Source: a bacterium
Lineage (GTDB): Bacteria; Patescibacteriota; Dojkabacteria; SC72
Assembly: GCA_022840695.1 (NCBI GenBank)
Contig: JALHDC010000001.1
Coordinates: 169,281-233,280 of the forward strand
Direction of reading: 5' to 3'
DNA length: 64,000 nucleotides
Positions 1 through 29,678 of this stretch are shown piece after piece. Under the pieces are notes generated by a model that saw only the letters and a list, made by a program, of their open reading frames with translations, did no database searches and was not told the DNA's origin. Every line of letters begins with the position of its first letter. Position 1 is the stretch's first letter. Position numbers and translations under genes: made by a program.

Positions 1-257
1 GAACATCTGAGATAGTTACAATCGAAAAACCGTTTCCAATCTCAAAGGTTATGTTGGTATGTCCAGTATGTGATAAGCCAACAAGAGTATCTTTGAAAAA
101 AGAAGGAGAAAAGATTATTAGAGTATGTAAAAAATGTGGAAAAGATATTGTAGAAAAAATAGAGAAATCAGATAAAGCTAAGAATTCTGAGAAAAAAGAA
201 AGTACAACAAAAAAGAAAAGTACAAAAGGAACTAAATCTAAATCTAAGAAAGAATAA
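1..257 (+). CDS. rplX: 50S ribosomal protein L24, C-terminal part (5' end lies outside the window; frame opens at nt 3). Carries a CxxC...CxxC motif and a Lys-rich tail.
   Basis: Open frame from the window edge reads [47 protein letters not shown]. This aligns with the L24 C-terminus (...[27 protein letters not shown]) and sits directly upstream of rplE as in the spc operon. Confidence 0.6.
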
Positions 258-811
258 TGGTAAGACTATTAGAAGAATATAATAAAACAGTAAAGAGCGA
301 GATAATGAAGGAAAAGGGATATGGAAATCCTATGCAAGTACCTACTTTAAAAAAGATAGTTGTGAATGTAGGAGCAGGAGATGCCGTATCCAATAGCTCA
401 GCATTGGAGGAAATAATTGGCATTCTAACATTGATAACAGGTCAAAAACCAATAGTTAACAAGGCTAAGAAAGCTATCTCTGCATTCAAGATAAGACAGG
501 GATTAGAAATAGGTGTATCTGTAACATTAAGAGGAGACAGGATGTGGGAGTTCTTTGATAAATTAGTTAATGTTGTACTCCCAAGAACTAAAGACTTCAG
601 AGGTCTAAATCCTGATTCTTTTGATGGTGCAGGTAACTATTCAATTGGAATAGAAGATCATACAGTATTTATAGAAATAGATCCTAACAATGTAACTAAG
701 GTAAGAAGTTTGCAAGTAACAATAGTGACTTCAGCAAAAACAGATGAAGAAGCAAAGTTACTTTTAGATAAATTTGGTTTCCCATTTAGAAAAGATGTCA
801 ACAGAAGCTAA
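257..811 (+). CDS. rplE: 50S ribosomal protein L5
   Basis: 184 aa. Typical L5 sequence ([11 protein letters not shown]..., ...FRGLNP..FDGRGNYS-like core). Position follows L24. Confidence 0.95.
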
Positions 812-989
812 AGAATACAAAGCAAGAAAGTTAAAGGAAAGTTCTAAATATAGCACTAAGGTCTACAACAGATGTAGCCAATGTGGAAGAGCTAGAGGAT
901 ATATAAGACATTATGGATTATGTAGAATATGTTTTAGAAAGTTAGCAAGTGAGGGAAGAATACCTGGAGTTAAGAAATCTATTTGGTAA
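774..989 (+). CDS. rpsN: 30S ribosomal protein S14 type Z (zinc-binding). The true start is probably the internal Met at 795.
   Basis: The C-terminal Cys4 pattern [25 protein letters not shown] is characteristic of short S14. It lies between L5 and S8. Confidence 0.9.
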
Positions 990-1010
990 TTTAATTTAAG
1001 ATAAAAGAGC

Positions 1011-1388
1011 ATGAACGATACAATAGCAGATATGTTAACAAGAATACAAAATGCAATCATGAGAATGAAGGAGAATGTTAATGTACCTAACACAAAAATT
1101 AATGCTGAAATATTAAAGGTTTTGAAACAGGAAGAAATGATTGAGGATTTTAGTCAAAAAGATAACGATTTGGAAGTTATTTTAAAATATGATGGCAATG
1201 AACCTGTTATTACAAAACTACAAAAAGTTAGTAAATTAGGACAGAGAATATATATAAGGCATGGTGAAATTAAACCAGTAATGAACGGAAGAGGGATATC
1301 TGTAATTAGTACCTCTCAAGGAGTTATGTCTGGAGCTATGGCTAAGAGTAAATCCCTTGGTGGAGAATTAATATGTCAAATATGGTAA
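1011..1388 (+). CDS. rpsH: 30S ribosomal protein S8
   Basis: The N-terminus MNDTIADMLTRIQNA matches the S8 signature. Operon position is as expected. Confidence 0.95.
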   Translation: MNDTIADMLTRIQNAIMRMKENVNVPNTKINAEILKVLKQEEMIEDFSQKDNDLEVILKYDGNEPVITKLQKVSKLGQRIYIRHGEIKPVMNGRGISVISTSQGVMSGAMAKSKSLGGELICQIW

Positions 1389-1392
1389 AGAA

Positions 1393-1938
1393 ATGTCTAG
1401 AATAGGACAACAAGAAATAAAAATAGAAGAAGGAGTTACAGTAACAGTAGAAGGAAAGAAAGTCACAGTTAAGGGGGCTTTAGGGGAAATAGCAGTATCT
1501 CTTCCTGAAAATTTAAACATTCAGATTAATGAAGGAATTATGTTATTAAATACTGAAGAAGAAACTAAACAAGCAAGATCAAACCATGGAACATATAGGA
1601 TGATATTAAGTAATGCTGTAGAAGGAGTTAAAAATGGATTTTCTAAAAATCTTGAATTAGTTGGAGTGGGATACAGAGCTAGGATGGAGGGAAGCAAATT
1701 AGTTATGAGCCTAGGATTAAACCATCCTGTAGAGGTTGAACCAATAGAAGGAATACAGATAGAAGTTCCTGAAGAAACAAAAATAGTAATCAAAGGTTAT
1801 GATAAACAAAAAGTTGGAGAAGTCGCAGCGAAAATAAGAGAATTAAAAAAACCTGAACCTTACAAAGGCAAAGGAATCAGATACCAAGATGAATATATAA
1901 GAAGAAAGAGCTCAAAATCTAACTTAGGAGCTGCTTAA
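1393..1938 (+). CDS. rplF: 50S ribosomal protein L6
   Basis: MSRIGQQEIKIEEGVTVTV..KKVTVKGALG is the L6 two-domain pattern. Operon position is as expected. Confidence 0.95.
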   Translation: MSRIGQQEIKIEEGVTVTVEGKKVTVKGALGEIAVSLPENLNIQINEGIMLLNTEEETKQARSNHGTYRMILSNAVEGVKNGFSKNLELVGVGYRARMEGSKLVMSLGLNHPVEVEPIEGIQIEVPEETKIVIKGYDKQKVGEVAAKIRELKKPEPYKGKGIRYQDEYIRRKSSKSNLGAA

Positions 1939-1943
1939 AGATA

Positions 1944-2270
1944 ATGAAAAACAAAAATAAACAACAAAAAAGAGAAAGAAGAAAAGCACATATTAGAAAG
2001 AATGTAAGAGGTACATCTTCTAAACCAAGAATATTTGTTTTCAAAAGTAACAAATACTTCTATGCAGGTTTAGCAGATGATGACAAAAGCATTGTCCTAA
2101 AATCCTTTATGTGCAAAAAAAGAAGTGATGATATAATTGCTATGGCTAAGAAATTTGCTAAAGAAGCAGTAAAAAGTGATAGCTTAGTATTCGATAGAAG
2201 TGGATATAGATATCATGGATTAATAAAGACATTTGCAGATGAATTAAGAAATCAGAAAGTTAATATTTAA
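1944..2270 (+). CDS. rplR: 50S ribosomal protein L18
   Basis: PRIFVFKSNKYFYAGLADD...FDRSGYRYHGLIKTFADELR matches the L18 consensus. Confidence 0.9.
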   Translation: MKNKNKQQKRERRKAHIRKNVRGTSSKPRIFVFKSNKYFYAGLADDDKSIVLKSFMCKKRSDDIIAMAKKFAKEAVKSDSLVFDRSGYRYHGLIKTFADELRNQKVNI

Positions 2271-2280
2271 AAATATTTAA

Positions 2281-2940
2281 ATGAGTCAAGATTTTAGAGG
2301 AAGAAACAAAGAAAGAAGTGAATTTGATAAAAAATCCTTACCAATAAGAAGGGTAGCAAAAGTTACTAAAGGTGGAAAAAGATTAAGATTTAGTACTGTT
2401 GTAGTTGTCGGAGATAAGAAAGGATCAGTTGGAGTAGCCTTGGGAAGAGGAGCTGATGTCAGAAGTGCAATAGAACAGGGAGAAAGACTAGGTACAAAAG
2501 CAGTAAAAAAGATAGAGTTAATAGGAGATACCATACCTCACGAAATCAATTATAAATATGGAGCAGCAAGAGTATTACTCAGACCTGCTAGACCAGGTAC
2601 TGGAGTAATTGCAGGGTCTTCAGTTAGAACCGTACTGGAACTCGCTGGAGTAGATAATGTATATGGAAAAATTTTAGGAAGTCCAGAGCCAAATGCCAAT
2701 GCATATTGTACATTTAAAGCTCTTAAAGCATTAAGAAAAGATAGAGTTTTGAGAAAAATGAGTAAGATGAGAGACAGAATAACACTTAAGGAAGAAATGG
2801 ACAAAGAGAAACAGGTTAAAGAGGAAAAAAGAAGGAAGGAACAGAAGGCAAAGAGAAAAGATAGCAAAAAATCTGAAAACAGGGGTAAATCGAGAACACA
2901 AAATAGAGTAAATAAATCTAAAGTAAGCAAAGAAGAGTAA
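2281..2940 (+). CDS. rpsE: 30S ribosomal protein S5 with a C-terminal K/E-rich extension of about 60 aa
   Basis: S5 core (RRVAKVTKGGKRLRFSTVVVVGDKKGSVGVALGRGADV...GTGVIAGSSVRTVLELAGV) followed by the tail KEEMDKEKQVKEEKRRKEQKAKRKDSKK... Confidence 0.9.
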   Translation: MSQDFRGRNKERSEFDKKSLPIRRVAKVTKGGKRLRFSTVVVVGDKKGSVGVALGRGADVRSAIEQGERLGTKAVKKIELIGDTIPHEINYKYGAARVLLRPARPGTGVIAGSSVRTVLELAGVDNVYGKILGSPEPNANAYCTFKALKALRKDRVLRKMSKMRDRITLKEEMDKEKQVKEEKRRKEQKAKRKDSKKSENRGKSRTQNRVNKSKVSKEE

Positions 2941-3383
2941 TGTATTTAGAAAACATACCAAAAAGAACAAATAGAAAAAGCAAAGGAAAAAGATTAGGAA
3001 GAGGATATGGATCTGGAGTTGGTGGCCATACAGTAGGAAGAGGTGTAAAAGGACAGAAATCAAGATCTGGTCATAAGTCCTTAGTAGCCTTTGAAGGAGG
3101 AAATGTTCCATTCTACAGAAGAATGCCTAAATATGCCGGTTTTAAGAGTATGTCATTAACTAAAACACAAGTTATCAATATTAATACTCTCTCAGAAAAC
3201 TTTAAATCAGGAGAGAAGGTTACAAAAGAATCTCTCGTGGAAAAAGGATTAATAAGCAAGAAATCCAACGAAATAAAAATATTAGCTGAGGGAGAAATTG
3301 AAAAGAAATTAGAAATTGAAGGATTAAAAATCTCTTCTACTGCCAAAGAAAAAATTGTAAAAGCAGGGGGAACAGTTAAATAG
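2940..3383 (+). CDS. rplO: 50S ribosomal protein L15. It directly follows S5, with no L30 gene in between.
   Basis: KGKRLGRGYGSGVGGHTVGRGVKGQKSRSGH is the L15 N-terminal signature. The ATGTAA start/stop overlaps rpsE. Confidence 0.9.
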   Translation: MYLENIPKRTNRKSKGKRLGRGYGSGVGGHTVGRGVKGQKSRSGHKSLVAFEGGNVPFYRRMPKYAGFKSMSLTKTQVININTLSENFKSGEKVTKESLVEKGLISKKSNEIKILAEGEIEKKLEIEGLKISSTAKEKIVKAGGTVK

Positions 3384-3394
3384 TTTAAAACCCG

Positions 3395-4660
3395 ATGAAA
3401 AAAACAATTGAGAGACTCAAATCTATATTAAGAACGAAGGAAATTCGGAAGAAAATAATCTTCTCGATATTGATATTAATTACATATAGAATTCTTTCTG
3501 CAATCCCTGTATCTGGTATTCCTGCAGAAGCAATTGTTAAACTATTTGAAGGAACCGGCTTTGGAGATATACTTTCAACCGTATCTGGAGGAGTTTTAGA
3601 AACAGCATCACTAGTTGCAATAGGGTTAACACCATACATTAATGCCTCGATCATATTTCAATTATTAGGCACAGTTATTCCTCAATTAGAAGAATTAGGG
3701 AAAGAAGGAGCGGAAGGTAGAAGAAAAATTTCTATGTACACAAGGATAGCTACTGTACCATTAGCAATCCTTCAATCATTTGTAATCTATTCCACTTTAC
3801 GAGGTTTTGGATTAGTAGAGACTTTAAATACCTTGGAATTAGCAACTATGTCTGCTACATTAACTGCAGGTTCAATGGTTATGATGTGGTTTGGAGAATT
3901 GGTCTCCGAAGATGGCCTTGGTGGAGGATCTTCATACCTAATAATGTTGGGAATATTGTCAGGAATACCTGGAACACTAAGATCAAATTTCCTAACCATG
4001 GATAATTTCCAAAAAAGTGTCTTTACTATTTTCTCAATACTATTAATCGTCGCAGTAATTATAATAAATCAGGCCGAAAGAAGAATTAAAATACAATACT
4101 CGAGAAGAGTTCGAGCTGGTGGTGCACTGGAAAGCTATATCCCAATCAAATTAACCCAATCTGGAGTTATGCCAGTAATTTTTGCAATGTCATTTCTCTC
4201 ATTCCCACAATTAATAGGAAAATTTATTGTGAGCCGAAATTTCAATGAAGAAGTTACTGTTATCACAGAAAAGATAATGAATCTACTTGAAAATCCATAT
4301 TTCTTTAATGGGGTATCATTTCTACTAATAATAGCATTCTCTTTCTTCTATTTAACTGTTGTTTTTAAAACTGACGAATTAGCAGAAAATTTACAAAAAC
4401 AAGGTGCTTTCATCCAAGGAATTCGACCTGGGGAAAGTACATCAAAATATTTACGAAAAGTAAGTTTTAGACTGACAGCAGTAGGATCAATTTTTCTTGC
4501 TTTGCTTTCTATTCTTCCAGACATCTTTGTTAGAACAGGTTTAATCTCTGCTGCAGTATTCTCTGGCACAGGGTTATTAATCGTTGTCGGTGTTATTCTT
4601 GATGTAAAAAGACAAGTTGAATCAATGATTACCGTCCGAAGCTACGATAAATACCTTTAG
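3395..4660 (+). CDS. secY: Preprotein translocase subunit SecY
   Basis: 421 aa, ten predicted TM segments. SecY-typical N-terminus (ILFSILILITYRILSAIPVSGI) and position after rplO. Confidence 0.95.
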   Translation: MKKTIERLKSILRTKEIRKKIIFSILILITYRILSAIPVSGIPAEAIVKLFEGTGFGDILSTVSGGVLETASLVAIGLTPYINASIIFQLLGTVIPQLEELGKEGAEGRRKISMYTRIATVPLAILQSFVIYSTLRGFGLVETLNTLELATMSATLTAGSMVMMWFGELVSEDGLGGGSSYLIMLGILSGIPGTLRSNFLTMDNFQKSVFTIFSILLIVAVIIINQAERRIKIQYSRRVRAGGALESYIPIKLTQSGVMPVIFAMSFLSFPQLIGKFIVSRNFNEEVTVITEKIMNLLENPYFFNGVSFLLIIAFSFFYLTVVFKTDELAENLQKQGAFIQGIRPGESTSKYLRKVSFRLTAVGSIFLALLSILPDIFVRTGLISAAVFSGTGLLIVVGVILDVKRQVESMITVRSYDKYL

Positions 4661-4713
4661 GTTGCTAAATATCACCGTGGTATCAAGGACTATATGCTTT
4701 TTATTAACGAAAT

Positions 4714-5214
4714 TTAATATTCTATAGGTGTATTGGATTCTATGAAGTTCAATACATAGAAATCAAAGAGAAATTTGTTAGTGAATAAATATTCGGATTT
4801 GTTAGACGAGCTGGTAATTGTAACATTATTTTCAATGTATTTGTAAACAATTTTCAATTGATCTTTAGTCGTAATGATCTTGCAATTGTAAGTACTTTGG
4901 AAAAGATGTCCAACAAAATTATATTTTTTGTTGAAATATTTTGTATATCTGGAGCTAATCTTTTGCATTACAGTTGCAATATTAACTTTTCCCTTTTGTT
5001 TTACTAATATGTGGTAATGGTTTGGTAGGAGACAATATGAAAGAATATCAAAATTGTTGGTTTGGAAGTGGTAGTGTAGTAGATTTTTAAAGAATAGGTA
5101 ATCTTTATTGCAAAGAAATATTCTCTCTTTTCTATTTCCCCTGTTATATAGATGTATAAGATAGGAACTTCTAGAAATTGTTTTAAATGTTTTTTTCATA
5201 ATTAGTTCTACCAA
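4714..5214 (-). mobile_element. REP-associated tyrosine transposase (RAYT) / IS200-like Y1 HUH transposase, 166 aa, antisense between secY and adk
   Basis: HUH motif LPNHYHILV. Also RAYT-like blocks (YLIHLYNRGNRKERIF, VGHLFQSTY, IVYKYIENN). Paralogous to the gene at 21882-22313. Confidence 0.7.
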
Positions 5215-5287
5215 ATAATTATGAAATCCTGATTAACTTGCCCTGTAGTATGTTAAAAACTGTTCATTTTATTGATATAGTTATTTA

Positions 5288-5296
5288 TGTTACAAT
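5288..5296 (+). promoter_or_regulatory. Candidate extended -10 promoter element (tgttacaat) upstream of adk, with AGGAGG Shine-Dalgarno at about 5323-5328
   Basis: TGnTACAAT, then the RBS AGGAGG 10 nt before the adk ATG. The -35 is weak or short-spaced. Confidence 0.3.
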
Positions 5297-5338
5297 CTTT
5301 CTAATTAATCTTGACATAGATGTAGGAGGATAATAAAT

Positions 5339-5983
5339 ATGACACTGCTTTTTCATGGGCCTTCCGGTTGTGGGAAGGATACGCAATCAGAGCTACTGGT
5401 TTCAAAATACGTTTTTCAAAGTATAGGGACAGGGGAAATGTTTAGAAAAATGTATTCTGATGGGGATATTTCCGCAATTAAAGCACATGAGTATTGGTCA
5501 AAGGGTCTTTTTGTTCCAAATGATTTAGTCTATGAAATGCTTGGAAGATGGATAAATAATTATGATCAAGAGAAGGATTGGATTTTTATTTCTGTTGTGA
5601 GGGAAGTCGGACAAATACCTTTATTTGATTCGCTTTTGGAGGGAAAGGGCAGATCTTTGGATAAATTCGTTCATTTTGTATTAAGTGAGGAAGCTGCTAT
5701 TGAAAGAATGTCTCTTAGAAGGGTTTGTGTGAATTGTGATGCCACATATCATAGTAAATACAAGAAAGAAAAGGTGGAGGGATATTGTGATAAGTGTGGT
5801 ACTATGTTGTCTCAGAGAGAGGATGACAAGCCAGAAAAGATTGTGAAAAGACTTGCAGAATACAATAGAACAATAGAGCCGATACTCCAAGAGTATCGTA
5901 ACAGAGGGATTTTACTCGAGATTGATGCAAATCCAAGTATAGAAGTGATCCATACAAATCTTGTGAAGCTTTTGAACTTGTAA
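5339..5983 (+). CDS. adk: Adenylate kinase with a zinc-binding LID (CxxC...CxxC)
   Basis: 214 aa. P-loop GPSGCGKDTQ, LID CVNCDATYH...CDKCGT. Classical operon position after secY. Confidence 0.85.
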   Translation: MTLLFHGPSGCGKDTQSELLVSKYVFQSIGTGEMFRKMYSDGDISAIKAHEYWSKGLFVPNDLVYEMLGRWINNYDQEKDWIFISVVREVGQIPLFDSLLEGKGRSLDKFVHFVLSEEAAIERMSLRRVCVNCDATYHSKYKKEKVEGYCDKCGTMLSQREDDKPEKIVKRLAEYNRTIEPILQEYRNRGILLEIDANPSIEVIHTNLVKLLNL

Positions 5984-6057
5984 AATAGACTTTTTTTTGT
6001 TATGCTTTCTCTGTTCTCTGATAGGTACCAAAATTACCGATATTTAATTACTTTTTG

Positions 6058-6086
6058 TTGAATTAAAGGTGTTCCTTTGATATAAT
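6058..6086 (+). promoter_or_regulatory. Sigma70-like promoter (-35 ttgaat, 17-nt spacer, extended -10 tgatataat) for the infA-rpmJ-rpsM-rpsK-rpsD-rpoA-rplQ operon
   Basis: Read directly: ttgaat at 6058-6063, tataat at 6081-6086 preceded by TG. It lies about 40 nt upstream of infA. Confidence 0.5.
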
Positions 6087-6124
6087 TCTGAGGATTGTCA
6101 CTAGATTGATAAAAAGAGATTTTT

Positions 6125-6358
6125 ATGAAAGAAAGCAAAAAAGTATTTGAATTTGACGGTATTGTAAAAGAGTGTCTGCCCAACACACAGTTTCTAGTTG
6201 AAATTGATGTAGAGGGTGTTAAGCATGAGGTTACAGGTTATCTGTCTGGGAAGATGAGAATGCATTACATTCGTATTCTTGAAGGTGATAAGGTGAAGAT
6301 CGAGATGACTCCATATGATAAAGAGAGGGGTCGTATAACATATAGATATATGAATTAA
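6125..6358 (+). CDS. infA: Translation initiation factor IF-1
   Basis: 77 aa S1-like OB fold. [21 protein letters not shown]...[24 protein letters not shown] is near-canonical IF-1. Confidence 0.95.
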
Positions 6359-6368
6359 AAATATTATT

Positions 6369-6485
6369 ATGAAAGTTCAGGCTTCTGTAAAAAAAAGGTG
6401 TCCAGATTGTTATGTAGTGAAGAGAGAAAGAAGGATCTATGTGTATTGTAAAAAGAACCCTAAGCATAAACAGAGGCAGGGTTAG
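6369..6485 (+). CDS. rpmJ: 50S ribosomal protein L36 (38 aa). Not in the ORF track because it is shorter than 60 aa.
   Basis: Manual translation gives [38 protein letters not shown], which is the L36 zinc-ribbon pattern. It lies between infA and rpsM as expected. Confidence 0.85.
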
Positions 6486-6511
6486 TTTTAATTAATTTTT
6501 TGTTATTAAAA

Positions 6512-6895
6512 ATGGCAAGAGTAGCAGGTATAGAAATATCAAATGAGAAGAGATTGTGGGTCTCTCTTATGGATGTCTATGGTGTTGGAGAAAGTAAAGC
6601 TAAGGAATTGTGTGAGAATACAAAACTTGATGGTAATAAATTAGTTAAAGATTTAAGTGAAGTTGAACTAGATGTTGTAAGAAGGTATATAGAGGAGAAT
6701 TTCAAGGTTGAGGGTGAATTGAGACAGGGAATATTTAGGGATATTAAGAGATTACAGGATATCAGAAGTTATAGAGGTGTTAGACATAAGTTAGGTCTTC
6801 CTGTTAGAGGACAGAGGACTAGACATAATGCAAGAACAAGAAAAGGAAAGAGTAGGCCTGTAGGTGGATTAAAACGTAAATTAGAAAAGACATAA
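6512..6895 (+). CDS. rpsM: 30S ribosomal protein S13 (start taken at MARVAGIEI; the track ORF begins 12 nt earlier)
   Basis: The MARVAGIEI N-terminus and RGQRTRHNARTRKG C-terminus are S13 signatures. Confidence 0.95.
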   Translation: MARVAGIEISNEKRLWVSLMDVYGVGESKAKELCENTKLDGNKLVKDLSEVELDVVRRYIEENFKVEGELRQGIFRDIKRLQDIRSYRGVRHKLGLPVRGQRTRHNARTRKGKSRPVGGLKRKLEKT

Positions 6896-6897
6896 AA

Positions 6898-7284
6898 ATG
6901 ACAACAGTTAAATCTAAAGGAAAAAATAAGAAGAGTGTACAGAGTGGGGTTGCAACTATTCAGTCCACTTTCAATAACACAATAATCAGTATTACAGATG
7001 AAGATGGTGAGGTTTTAGGTCAGGGTAGCCCTTCTAGAGTAGGTTTTAAAGGTGCCAAAAGAAGTACAGCATTTGCAGCTACTAAAGCAGCAATTGAGGT
7101 CGCAGATAGAGTAATAAAGAAATATGGATTAAAAGAAGTTAGAGTCTTCATAAAGGGACCTGGTGCAGGTAGAAATGCTGCAGTTAAGGGTTTGGATACA
7201 GCAGGGTTGAGGATTACAACATTGATAGATAGGACCCCTATTCCACATAATGGTTGTAGACCAAGGAAGGCTCCAAGAAAGTAG
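6898..7284 (+). CDS. rpsK: 30S ribosomal protein S11
   Basis: ATIQSTFNNTIISITDEDGEVL...GPGAGRNAAVKGL matches S11. Confidence 0.95.
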   Translation: MTTVKSKGKNKKSVQSGVATIQSTFNNTIISITDEDGEVLGQGSPSRVGFKGAKRSTAFAATKAAIEVADRVIKKYGLKEVRVFIKGPGAGRNAAVKGLDTAGLRITTLIDRTPIPHNGCRPRKAPRK

Positions 7285-7303
7285 TTAATATATTTTTATA
7301 ATT

Positions 7304-7915
7304 ATGGGTAGATATACAGGACCAAAAGAAAAATTAAGTAGAAGAGAGGGAGTGAATTTACACTTAAAGGGTGCTAGATCTTTCTCTGAAAAGAATGGGT
7401 TGGAAAGAAAGCCTTTTGCTCCAGGTCAACATGGTAATCAAAGAAGACCAAGATTATCTAACTACGGTTTTCAGTTAAGAGAGAAGCAAAAAGTTAAGAG
7501 AATCTATGGATTGAGAGAGAAGAATATGAAAAAAGCATTTAAAGAGGCTGATAGAAGATCAAAGTTGTTTAACTCTGATAAAGGATTAGAATTCCTTCGA
7601 TTATTAGAATTAAGATTGGATAATGTAATATATTTAGCAGGTTTAGCTGCTTCTAGAGCTTCTTCTAGACAGTTTGTTACTCACGGTCATGTAAAAGTTA
7701 ATGGTCAAAAGATAAATATTCCTTCATTAGAGTTAAAAGAGGGTGATTCAGTTGAATTAGTAAAAGCAAAATTGGCACCAAATGAGAAATTGTTTCAAAC
7801 ACCTGATTGGATTGAGAGTAAAGATGCTAAATGTAAAGTTGCAAGACTTCCAGTTAGAGATGATATTGATGAAGGTATTAAAGAGAACTTAATAATTGAG
7901 TTCTATTCTAGATAA
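7304..7915 (+). CDS. rpsD: 30S ribosomal protein S4
   Basis: MGRYTGPKEKLSRREG...QLREKQKVKRIYG; the S4/S4-domain sequence. Confidence 0.95.
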   Translation: MGRYTGPKEKLSRREGVNLHLKGARSFSEKNGLERKPFAPGQHGNQRRPRLSNYGFQLREKQKVKRIYGLREKNMKKAFKEADRRSKLFNSDKGLEFLRLLELRLDNVIYLAGLAASRASSRQFVTHGHVKVNGQKINIPSLELKEGDSVELVKAKLAPNEKLFQTPDWIESKDAKCKVARLPVRDDIDEGIKENLIIEFYSR

Positions 7916-7932
7916 TTTTATATTTTTTTTAC

Positions 7933-8898
7933 ATGGAATCATTTAAAGACATTAAAGTCACAATCAAAGAGGAGAAGGACAACTACGGTTTGTTTGAAAT
8001 ATCTCCTTTACCAAGAGGATATGGTCATACATTGGGTAATGCATTAAGAAGAATCCTCTACTCTAGTTTAAGAGGATCAGGTATTACCAGTGTACAGATA
8101 AAAGGAATAGATCATGAATATTCTACATTAGATGGTATCAAGGAAAATGTGGTAGATATAATTCTTAACCTCAAGCAGGTTAAATTTAGAACCAAGATGG
8201 ATGAAGTATTCACTTGTAAGGTATCTGCAAAGGGAAAGAAAGTAATAACAGCAGGAGATATAGAAGTTGCGGGTGATTTGGAAGTTGTAAATAAGGATGT
8301 AGTATTGGCTGAACTCACAGACTCATCTGCTGAATTAGATATGACATTAACTGTGGAATCAGGAGTTGGCTATAAAGCTATAGATGAAGGGGAAAGAAAA
8401 GAAGTTGGTTTAATTCCTTTGGATTGTGATTTCACTCCAGTTGAAAGAATTAGTTTAAGTGTAGAGCAGGCTCGTAAAGGTCAGGAAACAGATTTGGATG
8501 CTGTTTTGATAGGAGTTACAACAGATGGAAGTATTTCTCCTAAAGATGCCTTAGTTGAATCATCAAAGATTCTGCAAGAGTTCGCAGGTAAAGTTATGGT
8601 AGCAATGGGAATGTCAGAAAAGGAAGTCTTAGAATTAGAAGAAGAGGCAAATAAAGTAGAAATTACAGAAGATGAAGTAAAGGGAGAAGATGATGAAATT
8701 GGTGCTTGGAAAATAGAAGAGTTGCCAATATCTAAGAGATCAAAGACAGGTCTTCTAGCAGGAGAATTTAAAACAGTTGCTGATTTGAGAAATACTACAG
8801 CTACTGAGTTATTAAATCTTCCTGGTTTTGGTAATAAGTCATTAAATGAAGTCTTAGAACTCTTAAATGAGTACGGTATTAATATAAAAGGTGCATAA
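7933..8898 (+). CDS. rpoA: DNA-directed RNA polymerase alpha subunit
   Basis: 321 aa. The N-terminal dimerisation domain (FEISPLPRGYGHTLGNALRRILYSS) and C-terminal CTD (LNLPGFGNKSLNEV) are both present. Confidence 0.95.
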   Translation: MESFKDIKVTIKEEKDNYGLFEISPLPRGYGHTLGNALRRILYSSLRGSGITSVQIKGIDHEYSTLDGIKENVVDIILNLKQVKFRTKMDEVFTCKVSAKGKKVITAGDIEVAGDLEVVNKDVVLAELTDSSAELDMTLTVESGVGYKAIDEGERKEVGLIPLDCDFTPVERISLSVEQARKGQETDLDAVLIGVTTDGSISPKDALVESSKILQEFAGKVMVAMGMSEKEVLELEEEANKVEITEDEVKGEDDEIGAWKIEELPISKRSKTGLLAGEFKTVADLRNTTATELLNLPGFGNKSLNEVLELLNEYGINIKGA

Positions 8899-8907
8899 TA
8901 AAAAGTA

Positions 8908-9420
8908 ATGTATAAGAGAGTAAAAAGAAAAAAATTAGGTAGGGAAAAGTCACATAGGGAGTCTTTAATAAGAAATCTCTTGAGATCTCTTTTTGAATCT
9001 AACTATGTAGTTACAACTACACCAAAAGCAAAAGTACTAAAACAGGAGGCTTCATCTTTGATAGAAAAGGGAAAGAGTATAAAGGATGAGGTTGCTTTTA
9101 GAAGAAATCTTCAAAATCTTTTAGGTAAAGGCACTTTAGTTAATAAGTACTATGAATATGTAAAAAAGGAAAATGTAGGGGTAGGTTTTGTAAGAGTTGG
9201 ATTTAGAGGTGGTGATAATGCAGAGATGGCAAGAGTATTTCTTTTAGGTTTGGATAAGAAGAGGAAAAAAGTTGCAAAAGAAGATGAGAAAGATGAAAAG
9301 AGTAAGAGTGAGGAATCAAAAGTAGATAGAAAAGTTATAGAAAGAAATATCGACAAGAAGGTTGATAAAACTGCTGTAATAAGGAAAACAGAAAGAGCTA
9401 GAAGTAGAGCTGGTATTTAA
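8908..9420 (+). CDS. rplQ: 50S ribosomal protein L17 with a C-terminal K/E-rich extension
   Basis: L17 core (HRESLIRNLLRSLFE...) in the canonical position after rpoA. The last ~60 aa are Lys/Glu/Asp-rich. Confidence 0.9.
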   Translation: MYKRVKRKKLGREKSHRESLIRNLLRSLFESNYVVTTTPKAKVLKQEASSLIEKGKSIKDEVAFRRNLQNLLGKGTLVNKYYEYVKKENVGVGFVRVGFRGGDNAEMARVFLLGLDKKRKKVAKEDEKDEKSKSEESKVDRKVIERNIDKKVDKTAVIRKTERARSRAGI

Positions 9421-9436
9421 TTAACATAGTATAAAT

Positions 9437-9871
9437 ATGAAGTATAAAACTACTTGGACAAAAAAAGAAGAAATTGAAAGAAATTGGTACATAATTGATG
9501 TTAAGGATCAGATATTGGGTAGAGTTGCTACAAAGATAGCTTCCCTTTTAATAGGTAAGGAGAAAGCAGAGATAGTGCCTAATGTTGATTGTGGTGATTA
9601 TGTAATAGTTTTAAATAGTGATCTTGTTAAGTTGACTAGAGGTAAAGAGGTTAAAAAAATGTATTACAGACATTCAGGATATCCTGGTGCTTTGAAAGAG
9701 ACTAGATTTGATGAACAAATGAAAATAGATTCTAGAAAGATCATACAAGATGCAGTTAAAAATATGTTACCTCAAAACAAGTTAAAGGATCAGAGGGTAA
9801 ATAGATTGATAATATATAAAGATTCTGAGCATAAAAATTCTGCACAGAAACCAATAGAGATTAAATTGTAA
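9437..9871 (+). CDS. rplM: 50S ribosomal protein L13
   Basis: TWTKKEEIERNWYIIDVKDQILGRVATKIA is the L13 N-terminal signature. Confidence 0.95.
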   Translation: MKYKTTWTKKEEIERNWYIIDVKDQILGRVATKIASLLIGKEKAEIVPNVDCGDYVIVLNSDLVKLTRGKEVKKMYYRHSGYPGALKETRFDEQMKIDSRKIIQDAVKNMLPQNKLKDQRVNRLIIYKDSEHKNSAQKPIEIKL

Positions 9872-9882
9872 TTAAACAAATA

Positions 9883-10275
9883 GTGGAGAAATATATAGAA
9901 GGAATAGGAAGAAGAAAAACATCGACAGCTAGAGTAAGAATATATAAAGGAGATAAGGCTTGTACTGTTAATGGGAAAGCTTTAACTGATTATTTTTCTA
10001 CAAAAGCTGATGCAGAGAAGATTGTTAAAAGACCTTTGATAGTTGTTGGTATGGAGGGTAAATATTATTTCACTGCAAAAGTTTTAGGTGGTGGATTGAC
10101 AGGACAGTTAGAGGCTGTGAGATTAGGATTAGCTAGGGCTTTGTATGAGATGGATTCAGAATTAAAAACAACTTTAAGAAAAGAAAATTTGGTTAGTAGA
10201 GATCCAAGAGCTGTTGAGAGAAAGAAATATCATCACAGAAAGGCTAGAAAGAAACCTCAATTCTCTAAGAGATAG
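9883..10275 (+). CDS. rpsI: 30S ribosomal protein S9
   Basis: The C-terminus KYHHRKARKKPQFSKR is the S9 hallmark. It follows rplM. Confidence 0.95.
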   Translation: MEKYIEGIGRRKTSTARVRIYKGDKACTVNGKALTDYFSTKADAEKIVKRPLIVVGMEGKYYFTAKVLGGGLTGQLEAVRLGLARALYEMDSELKTTLRKENLVSRDPRAVERKKYHHRKARKKPQFSKR

Positions 10276-11296: not shown

Positions 11297-11557
11297 TTGA
11301 GTATTATGGCTAAATATTCAAACAGAATACAGGTAAATTTATCCAACAAATTAAGAGATAGGGTATATTCAGAAGCAGAAAGTTTTGGAATATCTGTTCC
11401 AGAATATGTAAGGTATGTGATATTGAAGAATCTAGATAAGGCAGAAAATGATTATCTATTAAGAGATATTAAAAGAGCAGAGACAGAGTACGAGAAAGGT
11501 GAGATTATTAAAACAAATAGTACAGATGAAGCTCTTGATGTGTTGAGAAGTCTTTAG
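11297..11557 (+). CDS. Putative type II antitoxin (86 aa) upstream of a RelE/ParE-family toxin
   Basis: Small gene with 1-nt spacing to the downstream RelE-like gene. The N-terminal region could be a DNA-binding fold. Family not assignable by eye. Confidence 0.45.
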   Translation: MSIMAKYSNRIQVNLSNKLRDRVYSEAESFGISVPEYVRYVILKNLDKAENDYLLRDIKRAETEYEKGEIIKTNSTDEALDVLRSL

Positions 11558-11558
11558 A

Positions 11559-11843
11559 ATGATGGTTAAGATTACCTATTCTAAAACATTTTTAAAGAGA
11601 TATAAGAAATTAAAGAAGGGAAATAAAGAATTAGATAGGAGAATAGAAATATTCATTGAAAAGTTTGTAGAAAATCCTTTTTATTCAGGTTTGGAGACAC
11701 ATAAGATCTTTTTAGATAGTGGGTATGTGTATAGTTCTAGAGTTACAGGGGATATCAGGATATTATGGAGATTTATTAATGATGAAGAAGTATTCTTTCA
11801 GTCAATAGGTGGACATGAGGGAAAGCATTCAGTTTATAGGTGA
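11559..11843 (+). CDS. Type II toxin, RelE/ParE (plasmid stabilisation system) family
   Basis: 94 aa. YSKTFLKRYKKL..NPF..GDIRILWRFINDEEVFFQSIGGHEGKHSVYR resembles the RelE/StbE consensus (...Y.K.F.K....L........G.YRI.Y........I..IGHR...Y). Confidence 0.6.
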   Translation: MMVKITYSKTFLKRYKKLKKGNKELDRRIEIFIEKFVENPFYSGLETHKIFLDSGYVYSSRVTGDIRILWRFINDEEVFFQSIGGHEGKHSVYR

Positions 11844-11862: not shown

Positions 11863-12150
11863 GCGCAAGTATTACTAGATGATTGCACTTACTTTTTAAG
11901 TAAGTGAGGAAAGTCCGGACTCCTTAAAAGGGTGCCAACGAGAGTTGGGAGGGAGTGATCTTTCGGAGAAAAGGGCAGCAGAAAGATATACCGCCTAATT
12001 TATTAGGTAAGGGTGAAATGGTAGTGTAAGAGACTACCGGGTATTGTAGTAATACAGTATCGCGAGGTAACCCCCACCTGGAGCAAGGTTAAACCGCATA
12101 GACAGATAATCATCGTTATACAGAATCCGGCTTATTGTGTACTTGCGTAT
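11863..12150 (+). ncRNA. rnpB: RNase P RNA (bacterial type, compact, about 288 nt)
   Basis: Conserved P4 strands GAGGAAAGTCCGG (5' side) and ACAGAATCCGGCTTAT (3' side) are present. The P1 helix is cgcaagta (11864-11871) paired with tacttgcg (12140-12147). Contains GGTAACCCCCACCTGGAGCAAGG-type conserved loops. Confidence 0.8.
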
Positions 12151-18817: not shown

Positions 18818-19747
18818 CTAGATTATAACATTTTCTTTAACAATTCTCTTCCCTTCAATTTGGTATTCTTGCAACTTAAGACATGCTAAAGGATCTCTTG
18901 TTGCAAACAAAAGAATATTCTTATCAATTATTAAATCTCCAGGATCTTTCTCTGAGCTATATTCTATTAGCGCTCCTTTATAAATTTTTATTCTCTTTCC
19001 TAATATACTCTTTCTAACATCTCCTTTTATAACACTCCATGCAATAGGCCAAGGAACAAAAGCCCTAACCATTCTGGCAATATATTCAGGAGTATATTCA
19101 TTCCATAGTATCTCTGCTTTTTCTTTGGATATATCCTTCTGCCAACAGTATGTAGCATCCTCATTCTTTTGTGATTTTGCCTCAATCTTTCCATTAACCC
19201 ATTTAAGCAATGTGGGTATTAGGACTTCAGTACTCTTTTTAACCAATCTTTCTCTTAATGTAATATTAGTATCATCTTCCCTAATTTCCTCTCTAAATAT
19301 TTCTAATACATCTCCCTCATCCAATCCTTCACTCATTAACATAATGGAAATACCAGTTTCCTTCTCTCCTTCCAGAATAGCTTTCTGTATTGGTACAGCA
19401 CCACGATATTTAGGTAGTATAGAGAAATGAATATTAATACATCCATACTTTGGATATTCTAAAAATTCTTTTGGCACTATTTCTCCAAAAGCCTTACATA
19501 CAACTATCTCAGGATCATATTTCTTTAAAACTTTAATATAGTTTTCCGTCTTGCCCTCAGTATGTACAACAGGAATACTATTTTCAATAGCATACTTTTT
19601 CACATCGGAAGGAGTCATCACCTGCTTTCTACCAACCGGCTTATCTGGAGTAGTAATTACACATACTACTTCAAAATTTGGATCATTGTGTAAAACTTTG
19701 AGTGTTTCCAATGATTCCCAAGCTGTCCCCAAAAATACTGTTTTCAT
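18818..19747 (-). CDS. fmt: Methionyl-tRNA formyltransferase
   Basis: 309 aa. N-terminal formyltransferase domain (VFLGTAWESLETL...VITTPDKPVGR) plus the C-terminal Fmt-specific domain. Confidence 0.9.
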   Translation of the reverse strand: MKTVFLGTAWESLETLKVLHNDPNFEVVCVITTPDKPVGRKQVMTPSDVKKYAIENSIPVVHTEGKTENYIKVLKKYDPEIVVCKAFGEIVPKEFLEYPKYGCINIHFSILPKYRGAVPIQKAILEGEKETGISIMLMSEGLDEGDVLEIFREEIREDDTNITLRERLVKKSTEVLIPTLLKWVNGKIEAKSQKNEDATYCWQKDISKEKAEILWNEYTPEYIARMVRAFVPWPIAWSVIKGDVRKSILGKRIKIYKGALIEYSSEKDPGDLIIDKNILLFATRDPLACLKLQEYQIEGKRIVKENVII

Positions 19748-21881: not shown

Positions 21882-22313
21882 CTAGACCTTCGTCCATCGA
21901 TAATCCGAAGGCTTTTTGACGATGCCATCACGAACCGGATTCTGTTTGATATAGCTTAACACCCGCATCTGGTTCTTTTTGTATGGCAAGTAATTGGCAC
22001 TGTACCTTCCTTGAAAGATGTGGCCAACTCTATTTCTTTTTCTGTTTATGTTAACAGCATAACTAGTGGTGACTCTTTGCATATAATTTGATAATTTTTT
22101 AGGATCCTTTCCTGTTTTTATCAAGAGATGAAAATGATTATCCATAATACAATAACTTACAAGCTTTATTTCGCAAATATCTTTGTTCTTGTAAAGTTGA
22201 TTGATGAACAAATTCTTGTCATCAGCATATTTAAATACTTCTTCCTTGTTGTTTCCACGATTGTATACATGGTAAAAACTATTCGGTTTGTAATTCCTTG
22301 GAGCTCTGGCCAT
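21882..22313 (-). mobile_element. REP-associated tyrosine transposase (RAYT, TnpA_REP; IS200/IS605-like Y1 HUH transposase), 143 aa
   Basis: FYHVYNRGNNKEEVF, HUH motif MDNHFHLLI, GHIFQGRY, YIKQNPVRDGIV..PSDYRW. These match the RayT/YafM-type consensus and the gene is flanked by inverted REP-like repeats. Confidence 0.8.
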
Positions 22314-24110: not shown

Positions 24111-24140
24111 CAATATTTCGCTTGTCTTCTAGTAAACAAT

Positions 24141-24180
24141 GCTATAGGGGAGAATGCTTTAACAAAGGCATTCTCCTTAT
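24141..24180 (+). terminator. Rho-independent terminator after rny
   Basis: Perfect 9-bp stem ggagaatgc/gcattctcc, 10-nt loop, then ttatatttttta. Confidence 0.7.
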
Positions 24181-24489
24181 ATTTTTTACTCAGAATGTAA
24201 CAAAATACTTACTGCTTAAGGAAAATATTAACATATCTACTGAAAAGTGTTGATACATAAGGGTTTTAGATGGGGCCAGACCCTATTACTTTTTAATGAT
24301 TTGTACAAAAATATAATTCATTAAAAAATGCTATTAGATCAAACTTTGTAGCTAATTTGCTATTTACCCTATAATAAATATCAGCCTTGACGAAATGTTG
24401 AATATACAATATTTTAGAAGTGGATATACACAAATTCCTTTATTTACAGTGTTTGTGTATAGTATCTCTAAGAAAGGAGGCATCATGAA

Positions 24490-24759
24490 ATGTTAAAGAA
24501 AGACTTAATTGACAGAATCGCAGCTACAGGTCTCACAAAGAGACAAGCTGGAGATGCTTTAGACGCAATGTTAGAGGCAATCGAAGATTCTTTGAAGAGT
24601 GGAGATCCTGTTTTATTAACAGGTTTTGGTAAATTCGAAGTCAGAACAAGAGCTGCAAGGACTGGAATCAATCCTAAGACTCTTGAGAAGATTCAACTTC
24701 CTGCAACAAAGGTTCCTGCTTTCAAACCAGGTAAATCTTTGAAGGCTGCTGTGAAGTAG
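24490..24759 (+). CDS. hup: DNA-binding protein HU
   Basis: 89 aa. LIDRIA...TKRQAGDALDAMLEAIEDSLKSGDPVLLTGFGKFEVRTRAARTGINPKT matches the HU/IHF fold consensus. GGAGG RBS upstream. Confidence 0.9.
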   Translation: MLKKDLIDRIAATGLTKRQAGDALDAMLEAIEDSLKSGDPVLLTGFGKFEVRTRAARTGINPKTLEKIQLPATKVPAFKPGKSLKAAVK

Positions 24760-27122: not shown

Positions 27123-27827
27123 ATGCAAAAAAGCTTTGTTCTTAAAATAGGAGGTTCTGTACTATATGATAATTTACTCAATCTTAATGAAGAATTGCTC
27201 AAGAAAGTTAAAGATTGGTATTTTGATGTAAGTGGTGAATATGAAAAGATTGTGATGGTAGTTGGAGGAGGGTCCCTTTCTAGAGATTTACAAAAGAAGA
27301 TCTCTACTTCTGTAGGGGGAGAGGAGTATCTACATAATATTGGGATGAGTGTTACTCAAACTAATGCTGCTGTAATTCAAGGATATATTGAAGATCCTAG
27401 TATATATGTACCTAAGAAATTGGGAGATGCATATGAATTTCTTTGGGAAGAGGGGAAAAGAACTATTCTAAGTGGTGGATTAAAGGTTGGTTGGAGTACA
27501 GATATGGATGCAGCAGTTTTTGCTGATATATTGGGAGTGGATAGGGTGTATAAGATCTCGAATGTTAGTCATATATATGAAGAGGATCCAGATTCAAATC
27601 CTAATGCTTCTTTGATAAAGGATCTTTCTTGGGATCAATACTTTGATTTATTTAATATCCTAGAAGATTCTGTACATAAAGCAAATAACAGCATTCCAAT
27701 TGATATTGAATGTGCTAGATTCTGCTCTACTAAAGGAATATCATTCTTTCTCTCAGGAGGAAAATATATTTACGAGAAATCAAACATAAAGGATATTCTG
27801 ACAGAAGGAACCTTAATCCATCCTTAA
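27123..27827 (+). CDS. pyrH: Uridylate (UMP) kinase, amino-acid-kinase family
   Basis: FVLKIGGSVL, VMVVGGGSLSRD, ILSGGLKVGWSTDMDAAVFADILGVDRVYKISNVSHIYEEDPDSNPNASL and the C-terminal ...GTLI align block-by-block with PyrH. Confidence 0.65.
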   Translation: MQKSFVLKIGGSVLYDNLLNLNEELLKKVKDWYFDVSGEYEKIVMVVGGGSLSRDLQKKISTSVGGEEYLHNIGMSVTQTNAAVIQGYIEDPSIYVPKKLGDAYEFLWEEGKRTILSGGLKVGWSTDMDAAVFADILGVDRVYKISNVSHIYEEDPDSNPNASLIKDLSWDQYFDLFNILEDSVHKANNSIPIDIECARFCSTKGISFFLSGGKYIYEKSNIKDILTEGTLIHP

Positions 27828-28297
27828 GATATTTTCTCTATAGTATATTCAATATCACCCTTAGGTGTTGATATTGTAACCTTATCTCCAACTCTCTTTC
27901 CCATAACTGCTATCCCTATTGGTGATTTATGAGAAATTTTTCTTTCCAAAGGATTTGCTTCATGTTCCCCAGTTATTTCATACTTAATCTTCTTGCCATT
28001 TTTCAATGTTACGAAATCTCCAATACCAACTACATTCTTGTTCGTATCCTTAATTATCTTTGCATCCTTAATCTTGTCTTTTAATTCTATGATCTTCTCT
28101 TCATTGATATTTTGCTCTTCTACAGCCATGGAGTATCCATCGTTTTCCCTAAGGTCTCCTTGATTCCGCATCTCATTTAAAGTATTTGCGATTTTAGCTC
28201 TTAATTCTTTTTCTCTAAATTTCAATTCTTCAACTAATTTTTCAAATCCTTTTTTCGTTGTTTCATATCTTTTTTCTTCTTTCATATAAAGTGACAT
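27824..28297 (-). CDS. greA: Transcription elongation factor GreA family
   Basis: 157 aa. N-terminal coiled coil with DLRENDGY...EQ, C-terminal FKBP-like domain (GDKVTISTPKGDIEYTIEKI). Confidence 0.8.
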   Translation of the reverse strand: MSLYMKEEKRYETTKKGFEKLVEELKFREKELRAKIANTLNEMRNQGDLRENDGYSMAVEEQNINEEKIIELKDKIKDAKIIKDTNKNVVGIGDFVTLKNGKKIKYEITGEHEANPLERKISHKSPIGIAVMGKRVGDKVTISTPKGDIEYTIEKIS

Positions 28298-28409: not shown

Positions 28410-28484
28410 GCCGCTATCGTCTAACGGTTAGGACACAGGATTCTCAATCCTGCAATCGGGGTTCGATTCCCCGTAGCGGTACCA
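28410..28484 (+). tRNA. tRNA-Glu (anticodon CUC), CCA encoded
   Basis: Cloverleaf read by hand: acceptor gccgcta/tagcggt, D arm tcgtctaacggttaggaca, anticodon stem cagga/tcctg with loop ttCTCaa, T arm ggggttcgattcccc, then ACCA. Confidence 0.85.
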
Positions 28485-28502: not shown

Positions 28503-29147
28503 ATGACTTTCGATATCATCACAATCTTTCCCAATGTAGTGGAAGAATATATTAATACAGGTATTGTAAGCAATGCTCTTAAGAAAGGGTTTGTAGAGAT
28601 AAATGTACATGATCTTAGGAAATGGACTGATGATAAACATAAGACAGTAGATGATACTCCATACGGTGGTGGTCCAGGTATGATAATGAAAGTAGAGCCA
28701 ATATATAAAGCTATACAGGAATTAAAAAAGGAAAATACCATAGTAGCTATAACAACTCCCAAAGGTAAAATTCTTGAACAAAAAGAGCTTTCTGATTTCT
28801 CAGAGCAAAAAGACTTACATATGATAATTCTCTGTGGAAGATATGAAGGATTTGATCAAAGGATACACGATCATTTAGTTGATTATGAATTCTCCATAGG
28901 AAAATATGTCCTTTCTGGGGGAGAACTCCCTGCATTAGTATTGATAGACGGTATTACAAGATTAATTCCTGGAGTATTAGGTAATATTGAATCTCTAAAT
29001 GATGAATCCTTTACCGATGGTAAATTAGAGTATCCACAATATACCAAACCAGAAGAGTTTAATGGCTGGAAAGTTCCTGAAATCCTTCTTTCTGGGGATC
29101 ATAAAAAAATTGAAAAGTACAGACAAAAAAGACAGAAAATGATATAA
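28503..29147 (+). CDS. trmD: tRNA (guanine37-N1)-methyltransferase
   Basis: 214 aa SPOUT fold. FDIITIFP, TPYGGGPGMIM, LCGRYEGFDQRI, LSGGELPALVLIDGITR. Confidence 0.9.
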   Translation: MTFDIITIFPNVVEEYINTGIVSNALKKGFVEINVHDLRKWTDDKHKTVDDTPYGGGPGMIMKVEPIYKAIQELKKENTIVAITTPKGKILEQKELSDFSEQKDLHMIILCGRYEGFDQRIHDHLVDYEFSIGKYVLSGGELPALVLIDGITRLIPGVLGNIESLNDESFTDGKLEYPQYTKPEEFNGWKVPEILLSGDHKKIEKYRQKRQKMI

Positions 29148-29213: not shown

Positions 29214-29678
29214 ATGAATGAAAAAATTGTATTAACAAAACAGAAGATAGAGGAGCTCAAAACTGAGCTAAATAAGCTTGAAAATGAAAAGAGAAAAGAA
29301 CTATCTCAGTCGTTAGAACAAGCTCGATTAAGTGATGTTAGTGAAGATACAGATGCAATAATTGCTGTTATGAGTGAATTGGAAAAGCTAGATCAAAGGA
29401 GTGAAGAGATTAAGGAAATCTTAGCTAATTCTTCAGAGTTAAAGAAAAGCCATAAAAATGGACATGAGGTTGGGATAGGATGCAGTGTTAAATTGAGAAA
29501 TAATGATAAAACTACTGTATTTCATATAGTCTCTGAGGTTGAATCTGATCCTTCTCAGAATAAGATATCTGACAAATCTCCATTAGGAAAAGAATTACTT
29601 AAATCCAAAGTGGGTGATTGTGTAACATTAAAGGTTGCATCAAGAACTATTGAATATAAGGTATTAGAGATAAGTTAA
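29214..29678 (+). CDS. GreA/GreB-family transcription elongation factor, second paralog
   Basis: 154 aa. Coiled-coil N-terminus and C-terminal domain (VGIGCSVKL...SPLGKELLKSKVGDCVTLKVASRTIEYKVLEI) parallel the greA at 27824-28297. Confidence 0.7.
   Translation: MNEKIVLTKQKIEELKTELNKLENEKRKELSQSLEQARLSDVSEDTDAIIAVMSELEKLDQRSEEIKEILANSSELKKSHKNGHEVGIGCSVKLRNNDKTTVFHIVSEVESDPSQNKISDKSPLGKELLKSKVGDCVTLKVASRTIEYKVLEIS

Follow-up and report, generated by a model that had tools for sequence, protein, structure and literature searches.

Gene content and order of the ribosomal-protein cluster

The first 10 275 nucleotides (nt) of a 64-kb stretch of bacterial DNA (contig JALHDC010000001.1, positions 169,281 to 233,280 of the forward strand; hereafter the window) were analysed. 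They carry a spc-alpha ribosomal-protein gene cluster from which two genes, rpmD (L30) and map (methionine aminopeptidase, MetAP), are missing. A first-pass annotation had described this region as having gene content like that of the Candidate Phyla Radiation (CPR), on the grounds that L30 is lacking between S5 and L15, that map is lacking between adk and infA and that rpmJ had been left unannotated; together with low G+C content and small overlapping genes, these traits had been taken as a taxonomic hint for the whole window. From the list of open reading frames (ORFs) and Pfam matches, the gene order was determined as L24 (3′ end)-L5-S14-S8-L6-L18-S5-L15-SecY-adk-infA-L36-S13-S11-S4-rpoA-L17-L13-S9, all on the plus strand. 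The sole minus-strand gene in the series is an IS200-like Y1_Tnp homologue between secY and adk. The collinear spc-alpha order from L24 to L17 is present, and every member scores above its Pfam gathering score.

The window begins within rplX (L24), of which only the 3′ part is included (1-257; PF17136, expectation value (E) 1.5e-15); the full gene (136 amino acids, aa) is carried by L083, a Logan contig of the same strain (L5 100% identical) that extends ~2.7 kb upstream of the window. It is followed by rplE (L5, 257-811; PF00281, PF00673), the start of which overlaps the L24 stop as TAATG, and by rpsN (S14, 795-989; PF00253, E 1.2e-23), which overlaps L5 by 17 nt and encodes the short zinc type of the protein with 64 aa, the length found in all relatives. 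Next come rpsH (S8, 1011-1388; PF00410, E 6e-40), rplF (L6, 1393-1938; PF00347, E 3e-31), rplR (L18, 1944-2270; PF00861, E 9e-24), rpsE (S5, 2281-2940), rplO (L15, 2940-3383; PF00828, E 1.3e-14) and secY (3395-4660; PF00344, E 9.5e-94). Beyond adk (zinc-lid type, 5339-5983; PF00406, PF05191), infA (IF-1, 6125-6358; PF01176, E 7.7e-21) and rpmJ, the series continues with rpsM (S13, 6512-6895; PF00416), whose start is the ATG at 6512 and not the TTG at 6500; in the gene calls for the Logan contig L001 it has 127 aa. The remaining genes are rpsK (S11, 6898-7284; PF00411, E 4e-33), rpsD (S4, 7304-7915; PF00163, PF01479), rpoA (7933-8898; PF01000, PF01193, PF03118), rplQ (L17, 8908-9420), rplM (L13, 9437-9871; PF00572, E 4.5e-40) and rpsI (S9, 9883-10275, GTG start; PF00380, E 2e-41).

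Packing is tight, with two TAATG overlaps (L24/L5 and S5/L15) in addition to the 17-nt L5/S14 overlap, and the G+C content of the window is 32.5%, in agreement with the low G+C content and small overlapping genes noted at first. Gene order and orientation match those of the Bacillus subtilis-type spc-alpha cluster, and of the Bacillota control loci described below, throughout. The window differs from the B. subtilis-type cluster in that rpmD and map are missing, in the position of rpsD between S11 and rpoA, in the placement of L13-S9 directly after L17 and in the antisense Y1 transposase-like gene between secY and adk. A Shine-Dalgarno motif was unrecognisable in the AT-rich 20 nt before the start of most ribosomal-protein genes in 1-10275; adk is a clear exception, with a Shine-Dalgarno-like aggagga.

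Because the sequence was assembled from a metagenome, the missing genes might be suspected to reflect an artefact of assembly or binning, such as a chimeric or collapsed contig. The layout is identical, however, in L001 and L002, two independent assemblies of Sequence Read Archive runs of the same strain, and the same junctions recur in sequence-diverged form in at least nine other species, so that the probability of such an artefact is negligible.

The 38-aa gene rpmJ (L36, zinc type, 6369-6485), which the first-pass annotation had pointed out as missing from the ORF list, was matched over its full length by PF00444 (79 bits against a cutoff of 26.1, E 2.6e-22, residues 1-38 of 38), and its translation contains the zinc motif C-x2-C-x12-C-x5-H (C11, C14, C27 and H33). 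rpmJ was found in all related loci and is a normal zinc-type L36 gene. Independent gene calls on L001 also skip it, because it has only 38 codons; rpmJ genes of this size routinely go uncalled. The missing annotation thus reflects a limitation of gene callers and not biology, and it drops out as an instance of CPR-like content.

Taxonomic placement

A homologue search with SecY returned nearest homologues of 75-87% identity, many of them named Candidatus Dojkabacteria bacterium by NCBI; in the NCBI taxonomy, Dojkabacteria is the former candidate division WS6. A comparison panel of 80 loci was obtained by a SecY-alignment scan of contigs from one genome per species. It comprised 13 Dojkabacteria-like loci (L003-L015, SecY identity 60-80%), other CPR loci with SecY identities of 36-42% (L016-L019, L032 and L075, the last titled Candidatus Peribacteria) and a remainder of ~60 loci, mostly Bacillota, which served as controls. 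The titles of L003-L015 in the genome collection are Dojkabacteria or other CPR.

A neighbour-joining tree was calculated from 12 concatenated proteins (2072 columns, 100 bootstraps). In this tree, the following nested groups each received 100% bootstrap support: the window with L003 and L004; a close clade of six taxa containing the window; a Dojkabacteria clade of nine taxa, consisting of the close clade and L011-L013; and a Patescibacteria clade of 13 taxa, consisting of the Dojkabacteria clade and L016-L019. The check by a phylogeny of concatenated proteins that had been proposed with the first-pass annotation therefore places the window inside Patescibacteria, and the CPR assignment made there was right, because the SecY homologues are named Dojkabacteria and the tree nests the window in Patescibacteria. 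No rRNA genes were found in the 64-kb window.

Several loci that group with Dojkabacteria by SecY are titled 'Microgenomates' or 'uncultured Saccharibacteria' (L003, L006, L007, L009, L010 and L013; four of them are also in the tree), and 'uncultured Pseudomonadales' is the title of L019, a locus that groups with CPR and has no L30. All seven discordantly titled loci are probably mislabelled metagenome-assembled genomes (MAGs).

The S5-L15 junction and the absence of rpmD

At the site occupied by rpmD in other bacteria, rpsE and rplO overlap (2938-2942): the junction reads GAG-TAA-TG (context GAGTAATGTAT), TAA and ATG sharing one base. The overlap had been given as ATGTAA in the first-pass annotation; the string is in fact TAATG, but the overlap is real and leaves no room for rpmD.

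A hidden Markov model (HMM) for L30 was built from 52 Bacillota ORFs of 59-63 aa located between S5 and L15, two of which were checked and matched Pfam Ribosomal_L30 with E of about 1e-20. A corresponding HMM for map was built from 48 ORFs located between adk and infA, two of which were checked and matched Pfam Peptidase_M24. With filters off, both were searched against all stop-to-stop segments (20 aa or longer) in the six frames of the whole 64-kb window. The L30 HMM gave no match in any frame (best E 0.28). tblastn searches of the window with B. subtilis L30 and with the L30, L9, L1 and Map proteins of Escherichia coli returned nothing credible, and in a Pfam scan of all 58 further window ORFs of at least 70 aa none of the L30, L9, L1 and M24 domains was found. 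L9 likewise had no match in the window; the rpsF-rpsR neighbourhood, the usual site of its gene rplI, lies outside. Dojkabacteria are among the groups for which absence of L9 is reported by Tsurumaki et al. 2022 (bioRxiv 10.1101/2022.01.07.475337).

S5 and L15 adjoin without L30 in every Patescibacteria-group locus in which both genes are present (17 in all: the window and 16 retrieved loci), with gaps of -35 to +63 nt. The 1-nt TAATG overlap is found in the window strain (window, L001 and L002), L003-L009 and L015, and is kept in 9 related species; in L014 the two genes are 17 nt apart, in the deeper Dojkabacteria clade they overlap by 32-35 nt and in other CPR they are separated by 26-63 nt. 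In agreement with these counts, absence of L30 as a CPR hallmark is already in the literature: no gene for it occurs in 69 complete CPR genomes, where S5 directly neighbours L15 (Brown et al. 2015, cited by Tsurumaki et al. 2022). The L30 state of the window is identical to that description, and its L30-less spc operon is thus an already published CPR property. rpmD would accordingly be missing here as part of a CPR lineage that lacks it, the loss in the CPR ancestor being taken from the literature. Such a loss would have brought S5 directly against L15, to the point of a TAATG overlap in this subclade.

The TAATG overlap is a classic arrangement for translational coupling. The possibility that the ~60-aa tail of S5 is what remains of rpmD, either fused or shifted in frame, was considered and rejected as unsupported: the L30 HMM gave no match at the tail in any Dojkabacteria locus (six frames, filters off), and neither Pfam nor NCBIfam contains a domain matched by the tails.

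In the panel, L30 is present between S5 and L15 in 52 Bacillota loci, those from which the HMM was built, and rpmD is missing at S5/L15 in five non-CPR loci, namely Syntrophaceticus schinkii (L041), a Syntrophomonadaceae MAG, a 'Thermotogae' MAG, a Clostridia MAG and a Tepidanaerobacteraceae MAG (L052, L053, L064 and L076). L30 is a surface protein that is often lost, and losses outside CPR are known from Halanaerobiales, Mollicutes and several endosymbionts (Galperin et al., preprint 10.1101/2021.01.31.429008). Because of these panel loci and published lineages, L30 loss is a CPR marker but a non-exclusive one. It is also the only gene-content argument of the first-pass annotation that carries weight for taxonomy.

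The same recurrence lends some plausibility to a non-CPR bacterium with a reduced genome (a mollicute, a member of Halanaerobiales or an insect endosymbiont) that lost L30 independently, and low G+C content and compact genes would also suit mollicutes and endosymbionts. Such an origin is nevertheless very improbable. SecY identity is 75-87% to proteins named Dojkabacteria, compared with 36-42% to the Bacillota and other CPR loci returned, and the window is nested in Patescibacteria with full bootstrap support. Its genes use TAA, TAG and TGA as stops, and hence the standard bacterial code, in which TGA is a stop, unlike in Mycoplasma and Spiroplasma. An origin outside CPR is therefore effectively refuted. 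Although rpmD is gone from S5/L15 in the five non-CPR loci just as in the window, those losses are separate, lineage-specific events in unrelated phyla, whereas that of the window belongs to a loss that spans the CPR phyla.

The adk-infA spacer and the absence of map

A spacer of 141 nt (5984-6124), devoid of ORFs, separates the end of adk (5983) from the start of infA (6125). The map HMM gave no match in six frames of the window, so that the absence of map from this site, as first annotated, was confirmed. Its description as a CPR-like trait was not: the deeper Dojkabacteria (L011-L013), other CPR (L016-L019) and the majority of Bacillota loci have map between adk and infA. The gene is missing at this site in the close clade of the window, where the spacer measures 127-145 nt, and also in many Negativicutes, where the gap is 21 nt. 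Since deeper Dojkabacteria and other CPR keep map at adk-infA, its absence there is a subclade-specific rearrangement or loss and not CPR-like gene content. The gene may have disappeared from the site in a later and narrower event within one Dojkabacteria subclade, leaving the ~140-nt spacer.

A promoter scan predicted a near-consensus extended -10 sigma-70 promoter at 6058-6086 (TTGAAT-17 nt-TGaTATAAT), and six species share a conserved spacer that includes this promoter. Shortly after adk lies a second conserved block (TGTTATnCTTaCTCTGTtCC, 5998-6017). Two other identities of the spacer were considered. A pseudogene remnant of map was rejected, as the map HMM found no match, and so was a structured RNA leader, as there was no Rfam match and no covarying structure; the conservation fits a promoter. 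At the adk-infA site of L008 (L008:12627-14864), an alpha/beta-hydrolase gene (Abhydrolase_2) and a 504-aa ORF without a Pfam match are found.

rpmD and/or map could also have been moved elsewhere in the genome, which would make the region a case of rearrangement and not of reduced gene content; the search covered 64 kb of that genome. For L30, this is countered by the published surveys, which found none in any complete CPR genome. For map considered singly, relocation is likely. In many bacteria, for example in the Negativicutes loci, map lies away from adk-infA. Moreover, fmt (methionyl-tRNA formyltransferase) is present at 18821-19747 on the minus strand of the window; initiation with formyl-Met is therefore expected, which normally requires a deformylase and MetAP, and a complete lack of MetAP in the genome is less likely for that reason. 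Weakly opposed to relocation of map is the finding that, among the best 120 homologues of the L011 MetAP (down to 52% identity), none lies on a large contig (400-760 kb) with a close-clade SecY. Among the matches listed (at least 600) in a search of metagenomes for a close-clade map, only generic MetAPs of no more than 48% identity were found, too generic to locate the gene. Taken as an explanation of the region as a whole, relocation is quite unlikely, and reduced gene content inherited with the CPR lineage (rpmD), followed by an event within one subclade (map), is preferred.

Lysine-rich tails in Dojkabacteria and absence of rpmC in one subclade

On L083 the genes upstream of the window are ordered L22-S3-L16-[57 nt]-S17-L14-L24-L5, without rpmC (L29); the gap (L083:1556-1614) lies ~1.1 kb upstream of window position 1. 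In every close-clade locus (including L003-L009 and L014), L16 and S17 are separated by 51-90 nt without an ORF. An ORF is present at this site in the deeper Dojkabacteria clade, in other CPR and in more than 50 controls, and six that were checked (63-69 aa) matched Pfam Ribosomal_L29. Neither the close-clade loci nor the window gave a match to an L29 HMM, and a homologue search for a close-clade L29 returned 10 proteins only, all from the deep clade. The subclade without map at adk-infA is thus the same as the subclade without L29 at L16/S17. Compensating extensions of L23 or L22 were looked for and rejected, because both proteins are equally large whether or not a clade has L29. The only loss of L29 mentioned in the main text of Tsurumaki et al. 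2022 is that in some Peregrinibacteria.

Lysine-rich C-terminal tails are present on S5, L17 and L24 in all Dojkabacteria loci; they are Lys/Glu-rich and 20-70 aa long across loci, and in the window they span 2758-2937 (S5), 9253-9417 (L17) and 153-254 (L24). In the S5 of the window (219 aa), PF00333 and PF03719 cover residues 15-154 only and are followed by the ~60-aa tail, rich in Lys, Glu and Arg; in its L17 (170 aa), PF01196 covers residues 20-110 only and a lysine-rich tail of ~55 aa follows. Accordingly, S5 measures 201-232 aa in Dojkabacteria as against about 170 aa in the controls, L17 166-178 aa as against 116-117 aa, and L24 of Dojkabacteria has 20-48 extra residues. A conserved TERA(K/R)SR(S/A)G motif (TERAKSRSGL-like) forms the end of the L17 tail. 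The tails are missing from other CPR and from the controls, with the exception of L17 of L017 (165 aa). None of the three tails matched a Pfam or NCBIfam domain; the NCBIfam model '50S L17, sunset domain variant' scored L17 weakly (53 bits against a cutoff of 280), and a literature search for 'sunset domain' turned up no paper. S5, L17 and L24 are outside the list of enlarged CPR ribosomal proteins as given in the main text of Tsurumaki et al. 2022, in which absence of map at adk-infA, absence of L29 at L16/S17 and the tails on S5, L17 and L24 are likewise unmentioned for Dojkabacteria.

Protein uL29 lines the exit of the polypeptide tunnel, where MetAP acts, and uL24 and bL17, two of the proteins with lysine-rich tails in Dojkabacteria, are located near this exit. 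It is conceivable, if rather improbable, that one Dojkabacteria subclade (the window strain and at least eight species) lost rpmC and map from conserved sites that the sister clade and other CPR keep occupied, and that its tunnel exit may have been remodelled. Were both genes absent genome-wide, the tunnel-exit platform of the subclade would be remodelled, and removal of the N-terminal methionine would be unusual or would not take place. A literature search for MetAP in CPR turned up no paper.

Interpretation and significance

The region is very probably the distal part of the S10-spc-alpha supercluster of an uncultured member of Candidatus Dojkabacteria (WS6; CPR/Patescibacteria), in which the rpmD gap is a trait of the CPR lineage, the map gap a later and narrower event in a Dojkabacteria subclade and rpmJ normal. 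Some points weigh against this reading. The tree was calculated by neighbour-joining on a panel chosen by SecY similarity and is narrower than a full reference phylogeny. The NCBI titles of the closest loci conflict (Dojkabacteria, 'Microgenomates', 'uncultured Saccharibacteria'), all of them still being CPR. The L30 and map searches cover 64 kb of a 239.6-kb contig from an incomplete genome, so that a relocated rpmD or map may lie elsewhere. Translational coupling of S5/L15 and of L24/L5 through TAATG is proposed from sequence only, as is the activity of the predicted promoter at 6058-6086, which probably drives infA-rpmJ-rpsM-rpsK-rpsD-rpoA-rplQ.

The value of the finding, small in practice, lies mainly in a correct taxonomic flag, which marks the genome as one of Candidatus Dojkabacteria (CPR). 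The S5/L15 junction can serve as a quick, non-exclusive CPR marker; absence of map at adk-infA is unsuitable for this purpose. Possible new knowledge is contained only in the joint absence of rpmC and map from their usual sites in the Dojkabacteria subclade and in the S5, L17 and L24 tails, which are modest leads; their confirmation on complete genomes would add to the known cases of lineage-specific ribosome reduction in CPR.

Y1 transposase-like genes and other features of the window

The minus-strand gene between secY and adk (4714-5199) is a homologue of Y1 (HUH) transposases of the IS200-like or repetitive extragenic palindrome (REP)-associated type (PF01797, Y1_Tnp, 53 bits against a cutoff of 23, E 4.4e-14). 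Its scores with the NCBIfam models REP_Tyr_transpos (40.6 bits against 80) and IS200 (21 against 55) were both below the cutoff, and no convincing REP-like hairpins or repeats were found flanking it, only weak AT-rich inverted repeats. A Y1 gene lies at the same secY/adk site in L006-L009, with 38-45% identity compared with 61-79% for the neighbouring genes, and is not found there in L003, L004 and L010-L013. As judged from these identities, it seems to evolve faster than its neighbours. A second Y1 paralogue (21885-22313, minus strand) shows 32% identity to it.

A class A RNase P RNA was located at 11866-12149 (plus strand). Its 284 nt fall short of the 367-position model: two model segments (43 and 24 positions) are missing, along with ~11 further positions. 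A pair of small genes (11297-11557 and 11559-11843) lies directly before it, the second being weakly similar to YoeB/Txe toxins. In the 379 nt at 24111-24489, upstream of an HU gene (24490-24759), there is no ORF of at least 70 aa and no Rfam match at the gathering threshold. Two paralogues of the GreA/GreB family (27827-28297, minus strand, and 29214-29678, plus strand) are located around a tRNA-Glu gene (28410-28484) and trmD (28503-29147).

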